Shown: positions 60,065-64,000 of the stretch, in pieces
How positions within the stretch are numbered: position 1 is the stretch's first letter
Layout of the letters: the number at the start of each line of letters is the position of its first letter
DNA from: Nitrosopumilus sp.
GTDB lineage: Archaea; Thermoproteota; Nitrososphaeria; Nitrososphaerales; Nitrosopumilaceae
Direction: 5' to 3'
Length of the DNA stretch: 64,000 nt
Assembly (NCBI GenBank): GCA_965207445.1
Contig: CBDBLX010000002.1
Coordinates: forward strand, 1,687,849-1,751,848
Made by a program: the position numbers and the translations under genes
Notes under the pieces: generated by a model
The model's database searches: none
What the model saw: the letters and a program-made list of their open reading frames with translations, nothing else
What the model was told of the DNA's origin: nothing

Positions 60065-60696
60065 AAATTTGGTCTACTATGACACCAATGTGTGGGTGGC
60101 GTGGATGTTGTGTCCTGACGACAAATTCTATAAAAGCTCCAAAAAACTGATAGATGATGTTACAAGTGGCAAGAAAGTGGCAATAGTTTCCTACATAGTC
60201 ATACTAGAAACGATTCACGTCTTGCGAGAAAAGATGACAAAAGGCCACAAGTTTGAGACAGACTATGACACATATCATGCTCAAATTGAACACAGAATAA
60301 GAGAAGACACAAAAAAAATATGCGTCAAATTCACACTCTTGCTAGTCGAAGACAAGTAATCTTAGTAAAACCAAATATTGGTTTGGCTGAACATCACGTA
60401 CGAGTTTTGCGTGAACTGGTACGACGTTTTGGTCCCATCAAAACGTTCAGTCGATGTTCATCCTGTGGCGAGAAATTATCTTCTGAAAGTCTGATCAAAA
60501 TTTGCCCCAAATGCAAGGCGGGCATCATTCCGGCCAAATTAGAATATAGAGGGCTCGGCCATGCAGATCTGGAACATGCACTCCTTGCTAGACGCTACAA
60601 CGTGAAAACGTTCTACAGCAGTGATCGCGCATTTAAGCAGTTTAATGACGATAGGACTTTCAGAGGAATGTATTTTAAAACAATATTAAGTTGTCT
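60015..60696 (+). pseudogene. PIN-domain (VapC-like) nuclease with a Zn-ribbon insert, split at an A8 tract
   Basis: YDTNV...LETIHVL / CSSC...CPKC...DLEH...YSSDRAF; A9 at 60311-60318 would join the frames. Confidence 0.7.
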
Positions 60697-60854
60697 TGTA
60701 AGTAGTTCCGCCTTGAGTGTACGCCTAGATATGATCATAGGAATAATCGTCAATGTAAGTAGTTCCGCCTTGAGTGTACGCCTAGATATAATCATATTTA
60801 ATATGAAGCGTATGATGAGTTTAGCTTTTATGCCCACTTGGAGAGAAAAGAAAA

Positions 60855-61988
60855 TTGGCTACTAGTGGCGTAGATCCTCATATATCCGTGTGCGGAGTGG
60901 AAATGAAGGTGTGTGGGTCCAATCATGATCCTCGTACAAAGATCAAAACTAGGCTCAAAAATGGTAAAAAACTTCGTGTAATACATAAACTTGATGAGGA
61001 ACAGGTACGGTGGATAGTTCAGCAAAAGCACAATGATGAGATGAGTGACGCCCAGATTGCAAAATTAGTGGGTGTATCTGCACGATGGGTTAGAAAATTG
61101 TTCTTACGATATGGTCATTTACAGCCAAAAGATATCACATATCCTCCAAAGATGGGACGTCCTTCTAATGGATTACCAGGCCGTCGAGAACATTCTGCAG
61201 TGATATCTTGTTGCAAGCAGAACAGACGTATGGCAGTCAGACTCGAGACTATAATAGAAGAAGAAATCGGAATCCATATTTCTCACAATATCATATATAA
61301 GATATTGAAAGATGAGGAGTTAGTAGAAAACCAACCAAAAAAAGCAAAGCAGCGAAAGTGGGTTAGATATGAGAGAAGATTCTCAAATTCTTTATGGCAT
61401 ACGGATTTTAAGCAGATTTACGATGGTAGATGGTTTGTGTCCTATCAGGACGATGCATCTAGGATGATTATGGGCTTTGGAGTGTATAATGAACCTACAA
61501 GTGTTCATGCAATAAAGGTGCTTGAGGGCGCCATCAAGAAATACGGTAAACCTGCCCAAATACTAACGGATCATGGATCTCAGTTCTATGCAAATGAGAA
61601 AAAGAACTCTGAGCGCGGTGTAGCAGTATTTGAGAACAAGTTAGTCGAGCTTGGTATCAAACAAGTCATGGCACGTATAAAACACCCTCAAACCAATGGT
61701 AAATTAGAACGATTCCACTCTGAGATTGAACAACATCTAAAATCATTTGAAGAAGAGTCTGCATGTAATACAGTTCGTGGTTCCAAACCCGGCGACCATG
61801 TGGGGAATCCATTCCATACTAGGGGTATAACAGACCCAATAACAAGACTCGTCAACTGGTACAATAATCTCCCACATATGTCACTAAAAGACGGTAAAGA
61901 AACGCCTATAGAAGCCTATAAACGCAAACAAGCACCAAAAGACATAACAGCAAAAGAAATGGAGAGTCATGCATATGTCAAATCATAA
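60855..61988 (+). CDS. IS481-family transposase
   Basis: HTH, LWHTDFK, DDASR, TDHGSQF, HPQTNGKLERFH. Confidence 0.92.
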   Translation: MATSGVDPHISVCGVEMKVCGSNHDPRTKIKTRLKNGKKLRVIHKLDEEQVRWIVQQKHNDEMSDAQIAKLVGVSARWVRKLFLRYGHLQPKDITYPPKMGRPSNGLPGRREHSAVISCCKQNRRMAVRLETIIEEEIGIHISHNIIYKILKDEELVENQPKKAKQRKWVRYERRFSNSLWHTDFKQIYDGRWFVSYQDDASRMIMGFGVYNEPTSVHAIKVLEGAIKKYGKPAQILTDHGSQFYANEKKNSERGVAVFENKLVELGIKQVMARIKHPQTNGKLERFHSEIEQHLKSFEEESACNTVRGSKPGDHVGNPFHTRGITDPITRLVNWYNNLPHMSLKDGKETPIEAYKRKQAPKDITAKEMESHAYVKS

Positions 61989-62004
61989 GTGGAACTAACC
62001 ATAT

Positions 62005-63231
62005 GTGGCACGAAAAACACAACAGAGCAGAAATTCAGATGGTATAGATCGTGATTCGCACAAGCAAAATGCAAACAAACAGATTAGGGGTAGAAAAAAT
62101 GACCATATGGATAGTCATAGCGTAAGCAAGGTGAAAAAAACAACCACAAAAACATCGGTAAAATATGATAATGCTCAAAAATATTTTGTTGGTATTGATC
62201 TTCACAAAAAATTCATGCAAGTGGCAATTATGGATCCTAAAGGTAATGTTCTTCAAAATAAACGAATTGAGTGCAATCATATTGATATTGTAAAAGAATT
62301 TTCTGAGTTTCCGCCCAATGCAAAATACGTGTTGGAATCTTCTTCAGTATGGTATGGCATGTATAGATTTCTCACAGAAAAATTGCATTTGGATGTGATG
62401 TTATCAAATCCACTTGCAACAAAACGAATAGCTGAATCAAAAAAGAAGACAGATAAAGTAGATGCTCGTATATTGGCAGATCTGCTAAGGGGTGGATATA
62501 TTGCAGGATGTTATGTTCCAGAGGAAAAGGATGTGCATAATAGACAATTGGTCAGGTATAGAAGTACAGTAGTAAAGTCTAGAGTAAAGTCCAAAAATAG
62601 TGTTCATGCAATATTGTTACAAAGTGGAATCAAGATCAAAGGGATTCCATTTTCTGCTGAACATATACAAAATTTACGCAAGCTTAATGACTGGAGGATA
62701 GACAAACATATCAAAACAATTGCATTTTTAAATGATGATGTTCGTGATTGTGATGATAAAATATCCAATGCAGTATCAAAAAACGAACATGCTTCACTTT
62801 TGACTACAATGCCTGGAATCGGTCCTGTTACTGCGCTTACATTATCATCTGAAATTGGTGATATCTCAAGATTTCGTGATATGGGCAGTCTTGTTGCTTA
62901 TTTTGGACTAGCTCCATCTGTGAGGAATTCTGCCAGTACAGTTCACCATGGTGCCATAACGAAAATGGGAAATTCCATGGTTCGACAGTTGCTCACAGAA
63001 TGTGTGTTGTCTCATGTGCAGTTTGCAAAGAATAATAATCGACAGACTCCAATAAGTGTATTTTATGAAAGATTAAAGGAGAAAAGAGGCGTCTCAAAAG
63101 CACAGGTTGCCGCTGCTGCCAAGATGCTCAAAATTGTATTTTGGATGCTAACAAAGAATATAGATTTTTGGACATGTATAGAGATGGGTAAAAAGAGTAC
63201 ACATCGTAACCCCAAGAAAAAAAATGAATAG
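62005..63231 (+). CDS. IS110-family DEDD recombinase (start possibly ATG at 62107)
   Basis: VGIDLHK, LESS, KTDKVDARILA, PGIG, GLAPSVRNSA. Confidence 0.95.
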   Translation: MARKTQQSRNSDGIDRDSHKQNANKQIRGRKNDHMDSHSVSKVKKTTTKTSVKYDNAQKYFVGIDLHKKFMQVAIMDPKGNVLQNKRIECNHIDIVKEFSEFPPNAKYVLESSSVWYGMYRFLTEKLHLDVMLSNPLATKRIAESKKKTDKVDARILADLLRGGYIAGCYVPEEKDVHNRQLVRYRSTVVKSRVKSKNSVHAILLQSGIKIKGIPFSAEHIQNLRKLNDWRIDKHIKTIAFLNDDVRDCDDKISNAVSKNEHASLLTTMPGIGPVTALTLSSEIGDISRFRDMGSLVAYFGLAPSVRNSASTVHHGAITKMGNSMVRQLLTECVLSHVQFAKNNNRQTPISVFYERLKEKRGVSKAQVAAAAKMLKIVFWMLTKNIDFWTCIEMGKKSTHRNPKKKNE

Positions 63232-63246
63232 ATGTGAAAAATTATG

Positions 63247-63365
63247 GTTAGGGATTTGTGCGTTGTAAGTGTGAGATTTAATGCTCGGGGAACTAACTGC
63301 ATGGTGCCCCTAACGAATGGATGAAGCATGGTATTGAGATTTAATGCTCGTATAGATACATATCC
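63247..63365 (+). ncRNA. Predicted bridge RNA/seekRNA with target-binding and donor-binding loops
   Basis: Two modules share GAGATTTAATGCTC; flanked by TGTAAGT/GGAACTA (target) and ATGGT/ATAGATA (donor). Confidence 0.8.
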
Positions 63366-63689
63366 GAACCATCCTCCGGAAAAACACCACCCTAGCGTAT
63401 GCTGCGCACTTTAGTACGAAAAGTGAAGAATCGCTTATAAGGATCCCACATAGATACTTACAGGATAGCACAATTTTAAAACAATATATTCACAGTGACG
63501 CTTTATAGTACACGCTCAGACCGGCCCCAAATTTGTGTTCATGGTTATGTGCCGTTCATGTACTTTGTCTGTGACTTCAATTAACGCGAGTGTATAGAGA
63601 CCAGTCAGATATACTTTCTTGCAATAAGAAAGTGTGCAAGCGCACGTGAGTTCAATTCCCTTCTCACATCAAGAATATCATGTTAGTCC

Positions 63690-63770
63690 GTAACCGTTCA
63701 ATTTCCGTGCCTGCACCAGATGTTAGACGGTGAATCTATGCCTAAATTTGAGGAGGGGTTGAACGGTTAC
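63690..63770. mobile_element. MITE family A copy with 9-bp TSD
   Basis: TIRs; TGTTAGTCC on both sides. Confidence 0.9.
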
Positions 63771-64000
63771 TGTTAGTCCATGCACAACATATTTCATATG
63801 CAAAATGCTAGGTTTTCCTCATTTGTAATAAAAATGGATAAGGGATATTGTAAGTGCCCCGATTCGCTTTCTGCCGTCTAAAGGTATCCAGGCCCCCGCT
63901 TACAGCGCCACTACCATTGTCACCATCATCACTCTTCTTCCCGAACCGATCTGTCCCATATTTGAAATAAAACCTGCCAACAGACATGTTGCACCGCATG

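Follow-up and report, generated by a model that had tools for sequence, protein, structure and literature searches.

Near its 3' end, the window (the whole stretch of DNA analysed here, 64,000 nucleotides long) contains one mobile element lodged within another: an IS110-family element of the IS1111 type sits in the right terminal repeat of a resident IS481-like insertion sequence (IS), 16 bp from its tip. At the level of these two elements the features are the following (forward strand, +; reverse strand, -).

60687-61997, +: resident IS481-like IS, entered by the IS110-family element; its last 16 bp now lie at 63457-63472
60697-60709, -: GGAACTACTTACA, an empty target within the IS481-like IS (left terminal repeat)
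60754-60766, -: second empty target at the same end, lying in a tandem repeat of 57 nt
61991-61997, +: left target half and core, GGAAC-TA, in both intact copies of the element; identical to the predicted RNA at 63289-63295
61998-63456, +: the whole IS110-family (IS1111-type) element, 1459 bp, beginning with the base that follows the left TA and including the TA that closes the right end; ends from comparison with a 99% copy (L002)
62002-62008, +: left subterminal inverted repeat TATGTGG, the reverse complement of CCACATA
62107-63231, +: recombinase gene, 374 aa when read from the ATG at 62107, in an open frame that extends back to a GTG at 62005
63244-63366, +: predicted bridge/seek RNA core, two modules, 123 nt (covariance model R1, 142.7 bits; R2, 118.8 bits)
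63434-63442, +: TATA-box-like sequence CTTATAAGG, a putative promoter box with a purine-rich stretch before it, outward-facing and 22 nt short of the right end
63446-63452, +: right subterminal inverted repeat CCACATA, read directly
63457-63462, +: right target half CTTACA, in both copies and in remnants L008 and L073; complementary to 63264-63270

The genome holds a second copy of the element (L002) at 99% identity, two "type B" copies at 66%, and four fragments. The left end is the same in copies 1 and 2 (GGAAC-TA/ACCATATGTGG, 61991-62008, the slash marking the boundary), and so is the right end (CCACATAGA-TA/CTTACA, 63446-63462), while comparing the copies shows their outer flanks to be unlike; the element therefore comprises 61998-63456, and the core that it shares with its target is exactly TA. 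It follows that the empty target, GGAAC-TA-CTTACA, and the sequence of the joined ends, CATAGA-TA-ACCAT, are what a preliminary description of this DNA had reconstructed; the two have only TA in common. Two remnants (L008 and L073) end ...TAGATA/CTTACA and another (L006) begins GAAC-TA/ACCATAT: a single target is shared by the two intact copies and the three remnants. That description had named copies at unrelated sites as a finding that would count against it, and copy 2 and the three remnants are all at the same site. Insertion is thus specific for site and orientation, duplicates no target sequence, and uses a short core that target and donor share. The subterminal inverted repeats, 7 bp long and inset 4 nt and 4 nt (TA included) from the ends, are at the lower limit of the 7-17 bp of IS1111 elements. 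A sequence search of the assembly for a circle junction or tandem copy found no CATAGATAACCAT. One of the remnants, L073 (G000:C2:1572397-1572515), is an orphan: a decayed copy of the RNA (74.5 bits) without a recombinase gene, cut on its 5' side by a MITE, its end still located at CTTACAGGACAATTTA.

The recombinase has the RuvC-like DEDD domain and the C-terminal Tnp domain with catalytic Ser by which the IS110 family is defined: it matches DEDD_Tnp_IS110 (PF01548, 7.4e-24) and Transposase_20 (PF02371, 9.4e-23) in Pfam, both above their cut-offs, and reaches 241 bits against NCBIfam NF033542, "IS110 family RNA-guided transposase" (cut-off, 140). The catalytic D, E, D, D and S columns (residue roles as assigned in PMC11208158) are kept in its alignments to IS621 and ISCro4, and the frame is without stops in both copies. 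An intact IS110 recombinase with a TA core had been claimed for this locus, and these properties, with the TA-only core, bear that out; the claimed thaumarchaeal host agrees with the nearest named relatives, which are Nitrosopumilaceae and Thaumarchaeota MAGs. As in IS1111 elements, the longer non-coding region is downstream of the recombinase gene: 225 nt (63232-63456), with 109 nt upstream (61998-62106) if translation starts at 62107. The motif around the serine is GLAPSVRNSA, that is, SA; for the IS1111 motif GL-P----S(T)G, SG, TG or occasionally TA are the endings described in PMC11187229.

What the element has entered is itself a multi-copy IS: six copies of the IS481-like IS are present at 98% identity or more (Pfam rve; the best NCBIfam match is IS481, below cut-off). 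The 13-mer target GGAACTACTTACA occurs in both ends of this IS, and twice at the left end by virtue of the 57-nt tandem repeat; the genome contains 10 uninterrupted exact copies, all in the ends of IS481-like ISs, against a chance expectation of approximately 0.08 for a genome of this size (hand arithmetic). Variants also exist: five sites read GGAAGTACTTACA and one reads GGAATTACTTACA. Contigs of four sequencing runs, all of one sample, contain the uninterrupted target, and there are loose ends of the form ...GGAACTA/CTTACAGGATAGCACA; reading the empty-site contigs as excision at this locus was set aside, as other copies of the IS481-like IS are their probable source. (A separate observation: a MITE-like repeat of about 82-90 nt at 63690-63773, with inverted ends GTAACCGTTCAA..., has more than 130 genome copies. 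Some contigs skip 63680-63771, and loose ends place the MITE-like repeat in an IS110 copy near 62665-62673.)

The 3' non-coding region carries the predicted guide RNA. It is built of two modules, each of which runs from a stem through a 5' loop strand and a short hairpin to a 3' loop strand (all on the + strand).

63247-63314, +: module 1, the predicted target-binding loop; outer stem (helix 1) GTTAGGG/CCCTAAC at 63247-63253 and 63308-63314
63258-63261 and 63299-63302, +: inner stem of module 1 (helix 2), GTGC/GCAT
63262-63272, +: 5' strand of module 1, GTTGTAAGTGT; its TGTAAGT (63264-63270) pairs with the top strand A-CTTACA, the right target half
63272-63287, +: hairpin 1 (helix 3), TGAGATTTAATGCTCG, stem UGAG/CUCG with an 8-nt loop
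63288-63298, +: 3' strand of module 1, GGGAAC-TA-AC-T; its GGAACTA (63289-63295) equals left target half plus core
63319-63365, +: module 2, the predicted donor-binding loop; closing stem (helix 4) GGATG/TATCC at 63319-63323 and 63361-63365
63324-63334, +: 5' strand of module 2, AAGCATGGTAT; its ATGGT (63328-63332) pairs with the left end, ACCAT
63335-63350, +: hairpin 2 (helix 5), identical to hairpin 1
63351-63360, +: 3' strand of module 2, TATAGA-TA-CA; its ATAGATA (63352-63358) equals right end plus core
63370-63374, +: CATCC, which can pair with GGATG as the 3' strand of an alternative helix; relatives have a longer version (GGATGAAG/CTTCATCC)

The 3' strand of module 1, being equal to the left target half and core, pairs with the bottom strand; after the core it continues with AC, the first two bases of the left end, and so occupies the place of a "handshake guide". 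(The identity with the target extends over the 9-mer GGAACTAAC, exact at both 61991-61999 and 63289-63297.) Module 2 repeats the arrangement of module 1, in which G is followed by 6 nt, TA, 2 nt, T and the stem. The stems, guides and repeats of the preliminary description were all found exactly where it had placed them; its identical 14-mer GAGATTTAATGCTC (63273-63286 and 63336-63349) lies within an exact 16-mer, TGAGATTTAATGCTCG, repeated 63 nt apart at 63272-63287 and 63335-63350 and matched in none of 100 shuffles of the window. (Allowing two mismatches makes the repeat test uninformative: 19 of 100 shuffles then gave at least two matches.) In 5000 random non-coding regions generated from a first-order Markov model, both target matches were as long in 18, both donor matches in 37 and all four in none; the longest donor-complementary match counted there is an 8-mer at 63243-63250 rather than ATGGT, a 5-mer that is weak when taken alone. 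Apart from the four guides, TATGGTTAG, at the very start of the RNA (63243-63251), is perfectly complementary to the left junction CTAACCATA (61995-62003). A comparable complementarity is seen in group E (ATAGTTA with TAACTAT), and is lacking in types B and D.

Does this region fold as drawn? Folding 63232-63456 had been suggested as a check; the folding energy is no better than that of shuffled sequences (z = 0.22 for 63232-63456; -0.61 for 63244-63366) and lends no support. The minimum-energy fold of the 123-nt stretch 63244-63366 does contain the same five helices. A search with 4227 Rfam models, at E up to 10, yielded no match near the non-coding region and no bridge RNA family among its hits. 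Homologues from the same archaeal family with at least 43% protein identity have the same two-module layout 3' of the gene, and a covariance model (R1) built from five sequences, the other check that had been proposed, gave 43 matches in 57 loci. In an alignment (A3) that was fitted to the model, and thus favours the model's structure, and whose rows come from related elements that are not independent, 98.2% of the cells of 31 distinct rows pair (34-45% when the partners are slid), both-side changes occur in 18 of 24 base pairs, and the covariation score was reached by none of 500 shuffles. The helices covary: both sides have changed in six of the seven pairs of helix 1 (GTTAGGG/CCCTAAC), in four of four in helix 2 and in four of four in helix 3, which is 100% paired; at one pair of helix 5, AU and GC are each found 15 times. 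Helix 4, the closing stem of module 2, is the weakest (98.7% paired, both-side changes in just two of five pairs). G-U pairs are common in several helices. (A technical note: an earlier alignment with MAFFT and RNAalifold of 20 of 25 representatives, leaving out the five long-hairpin elements L054, L019, L023, L022 and L020, misaligned hairpin 1 and the inner stem and so recovered only three of the five helices; it was replaced by the covariance-model alignment.)

Just downstream, the alternative helix (GGATGAAG/CTTCATCC in relatives) and the closing stem of module 2 are mutually exclusive. It reaches at least 6 bp in 15 of 21 elements, compared with 35% of shuffles, and L020 and L023 show compensated changes in it; it might act as a switch or belong to a longer form of the RNA. 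Most relatives also have a run of four to five T residues, 10-20 nt past module 2, that is absent from types A and B here and is likely to be an archaeal termination signal.

If module 1 reads the target, its strands should follow the flanks of each insertion. On average they do. Taking one insertion per group and permuting flanks among groups 5000 times, the longest run of complementarity between the 5' strand and its own right flank averaged 5.42 nt (3.68 permuted; 19 groups), and the identity of the 3' strand with its own left flank averaged 3.5 of 7 (1.68 permuted; 16 groups); in neither case did any of the 5000 permutations reach the observed value. Guides and insertion sites thus covary, as the preliminary description had wanted checked, and they do so unevenly from element to element: the left-flank match is at most 3 of 7 in 14 of 27 insertions (among them groups D and G, L013 and L017), and the right-flank run is at most 4 nt in 8 of 33 (among them types B and L010; in the present genome, type B matches weakly on this side). 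(Another technical note: the ends of single-copy elements were placed by motif search, not by comparison of copies. These tests were run without L018, which the anchor search missed, L021, whose RNA is incomplete, L046, which has no RNA, L059-L062, and L025, L055 and L056, which are at 40% identity and were not parsed; insertions whose flank could not be set, one on the right and seven on the left of 34, were excluded.)

Close relatives are instructive. A single guide base separates L052 from L053, and the corresponding base of the right flank is changed as well (TGCATAAGG versus TGCATACGG); L003 and L004 have G and A at one guide base, and their left flanks differ likewise. Between near-identical copies, differences are 5-fold denser in the target-guide windows than elsewhere (10 in 198 nt versus 149 in 14,850 nt; Fisher p = 5e-5, computed over copy pairs that are not independent). 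In genome G019 the association of guides with flanks is incomplete (one-sided Fisher p ~0.07, by hand calculation): all four copies with G-type guides are at C-type flanks and all five G-type flanks hold C-type guides, and C-type guides at C-type flanks amount to three distinct insertions (four loci, of which L101 and L105 share a flank). These mixed cases could be explained by RNA acting in trans or by insertion at a half-matched site; RNA supplied in trans works for the bacterial IS1111 elements described in PMC11187229.

Two side observations concern the choice of target. The motif TGCATACGGTCTAAT recurs as target or flank at L049, L050, L015, L052 and L053, in genomes G019, G001 and G044, which suggests that these three genomes have a repeated element in common as prey. 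In genome G177 (L114; L044, L045, L057 and L058), elements of group E have been entered, within their left end, by an element of a third type. The right end of this third type, CACATGGA-TA, abuts TGTGAATAAGAAAG, to which its 5' guide, TTTTCACATT, is complementary. Here one bridge-RNA element has another as its target.

Module 2 was said to match both strands of the joined ends, and here it does; among relatives the two sides are unequal. Its 3' strand equals right end plus core in 19 of 20 elements, with matches of 7-8 nt (ATAGATA in nine, ATGGATA in nine, ATGGGTA in one). Its 5' strand is the complement of bases 1-5 of the left end in 11 of 17 (ACCAT/ATGGT in nine, ATCAT/ATGAT in two), and the exact 5-mer is missing in the other six, of which L015 and L017 have ATGAT facing ACCAT. 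In type B and in L054 the left end starts with AT, and the 3' strand of loop 1 likewise continues with AT after the core; the place of this AC or AT is that of the handshake guide in IS621, as described in PMC11208158.

A rival view is that only module 1 guides, as a target "seekRNA", while module 2 is scaffold or protein-binding site and the ends are read by the recombinase through the subterminal repeats and flanks. The shortness of the left-end match and its loss in six elements speak for such a division of labour, as do the small number of right-end variants (three, partly tracking relatedness) and the place of the closing stem as the least supported helix; the IS1111 work, as presented in PMC11187229, stresses target matches and correct flanks around the donor. 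Those three variants are nevertheless mirrored between RNA and right end in 19 of 20 elements, including the single ATGGGTA and the close pair L017 (ATAGATA) and L014 (ATGGATA); the pair ATCAT and ATGAT is seen in both type B and L054, which are unlike elements; and the layout of module 2 is that of module 1. A module 2 that does not guide is, we think, very unlikely.

It is very unlikely that the modules act instead as DNA, that is, as subterminal sites or single-strand DNA hairpins for the recombinase, the matches then representing recognition of DNA by DNA. Short hairpins could form in single-stranded DNA too, but compensatory changes in five helices, together with the G-U pairs common in several of them, fit a transcribed strand, and homologous recombinases use RNA from the same region (PMC11187229; PMC11208160, in the elements described there), the NF033542 family being named RNA-guided. 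That the element is a dead relic, its matches arising by chance or left over from an old recombination, we consider extremely improbable: there is no sign of present-day movement, and the empty-site contigs may stem from other copies of the IS481-like IS, but two 99% copies retain open frames, no permutation in 5000 attained the guide-flank matches on either side, and no random region in 5000 attained all four guide matches.

Very probably, then, the element at 61998-63456 is intact and belongs to the IS1111 type of the IS110 family, its host being an archaeon of the Nitrosopumilaceae; its 3' region would encode a two-loop bridge/seek RNA that guides the recombinase. In this scheme the 3' non-coding region would give rise to a bridge (seek) RNA with two internal loops, some 123-135 nt in length. 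Loop 1 would hold the target, a 13-bp sequence found in both terminal repeats of the resident IS481-like IS, its 5' strand on the top strand of A-CTTACA and its 3' strand on the bottom strand of GGAAC-TA; loop 2 would hold the joined ends of the excised element, with ATGGT on ACCAT and with ATAGA-TA standing for right end plus core. With both loops bound to it, the DEDD/Ser recombinase would swap strands at the common TA, and the products would be GGAAC-TA-ACCAT... on the left and ...CATAGA-TA-CTTACA on the right, without duplication. Comparison of sequences shows the anatomy, the site specificity, and covariation both within the helices and between guides and flanks; beyond this, the region would be transcribed, its RNA would bind the recombinase, and a circle would form.

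What would express such an element? Archaeal transcription directed by a TATA box placed like that at 63434-63442 would start a few bases past the tip, which is to say in the left end once the ends have been joined. Of 20 elements, 18 have the motif with its purines at -21 to -24 nt relative to the right end, and from its position we infer that the outward-facing box would drive the recombinase gene after end joining.

The likeness of the two modules raises the question of their origin. The preliminary description took them for one module duplicated, and the shared layout agrees with that; identity of the hairpins is less general. Of 24 distinct combinations of hairpins 1 and 2, only 4 have the two identical, with a mean similarity of 0.78 within elements and 0.65 between them, and a duplication therefore stands as plausible but unproven. 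(The identical hairpins, and 4-nt palindromes in several of the loops, had prompted the idea of kissing loops; it was dropped because type B has no such palindrome.) One can try to draw all of this together: paralogous guide modules (stem, 5' strand, hairpin, G-6nt-TA-2nt-T) whose hairpins several lineages keep identical, though they differ from lineage to lineage; a complete BRE/TATA promoter at a fixed 22 nt from the right tip; an IS parasite that cuts terminal repeats in two; and retargeting by point changes in the loop. As a single reading this is tentative and, on the whole, somewhat doubtful. If it were true, joining of the ends would switch on both recombinase and guide RNA, and the promoter of the integrated element would fire outward; mesophilic archaea would offer a compact, symmetric and naturally reprogrammed bridge system; and there would be a hint that two-loop bridge RNAs originated by duplicating a one-loop guide.

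How widespread is the system? A second model (R2) has matches in 24 of 151 sampled genomes of the class, spread over five families; two complete genomes have at least 20 copies each. R2 found no match in the more distant thaumarchaeal IS110 loci L027-L038. The best plasmid matches are haloarchaeal IS110 transposases with 33-35% protein identity: R2 found nothing in two of the haloarchaeal IS110 elements (L074 and L076), and a weak match in a third (L075; 19 bits, E = 0.019), located upstream of the gene, was set aside. Among the papers searched, no description of this element family in Nitrososphaeria was found. The tree table of Durrant et al. (PMC11208160) lists one Thaumarchaeota cluster and several archaeal ones, in a form that gives no RNA detail; the same paper predicts bridge RNAs in 93% of ISfinder IS1111 entries, and according to PMC11187229 IS1111 elements abound in archaea as well as in bacteria.

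In IS1111 elements, according to PMC11187229 and PMC11208160, the RNA lies 3' of the gene and the match to the top strand is 5' of the match to the bottom strand. A 3' RNA with four guides, IS1111-fashion, had been claimed here, and its location and strand order fit the descriptions in PMC11187229; because these are the features reported for IS1111, the element is counted as one of a known kind. The mechanism is already established for the IS110/IS1111 family and is not a new one. The closest parallel is with the IS1111 seekRNA elements ISEc11, ISKpn4, ISPa11 and ISPst6 as Siddiquee et al. (2024, PMC11187229) describe them, which also have a DEDD recombinase, a long 3' non-coding region, subterminal inverted repeats, no target duplication, a target of its own for each element or group, and a segment complementary to the top strand followed 3' by one complementary to the bottom strand. 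Set against those descriptions (PMC11187229), the present element differs in its archaeal host (Nitrosopumilaceae), in having SA in place of S(T)G, in repeats at the short end of the range (7 bp), and in an evident second loop matching its own ends.

The bridge RNA of IS621 (Durrant et al. 2024, PMC11208160; Hiraizumi et al. 2024, PMC11208158) is the other point of reference. It likewise has internal loops for target and donor, each reading both strands around a 2-nt core, and a recombinase with catalytic D, E, D, D and S; likewise, two bases of its target loop past the core match the donor (AC here) in the manner of a handshake guide (PMC11208158). Unlike IS621 as there described, the element has its RNA 3' rather than 5' of the gene, the reverse order of strands in its loops, and a TA core instead of CT; similarity of the two proteins is weak (E = 4e-7). 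Many donor-binding bases of IS1111 RNAs are placed in a multiloop by Durrant et al. (PMC11208160); here both loops are simple and alike.

The habit of preying on another element's ends has its own parallel. The IS1111-family elements IS4321 and IS5075 reportedly target the terminal repeats of Tn21-family transposons (Partridge and Hall, 2003). Here too the target is inside the terminal repeat of another mobile element, and is used at one position and in one orientation; the prey differs in being an archaeal IS481-like IS.

None of this alters the known mechanism. What the archaeal element would do is extend bridge/seek RNA-guided recombination, for which bacterial elements are so far the only ones tested, to ammonia-oxidising archaea, in the form of a well-resolved family. 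The many natural pairs of guide and target, and a small RNA with two simple, similar loops and a TA core, could provide a data set on specificity and a scaffold for engineering. The promoter-like box suggests how an archaeal promoter may take the place of the split junction promoter of bacteria. And in this archaeal genome, one IS preys on the terminal repeats of another.
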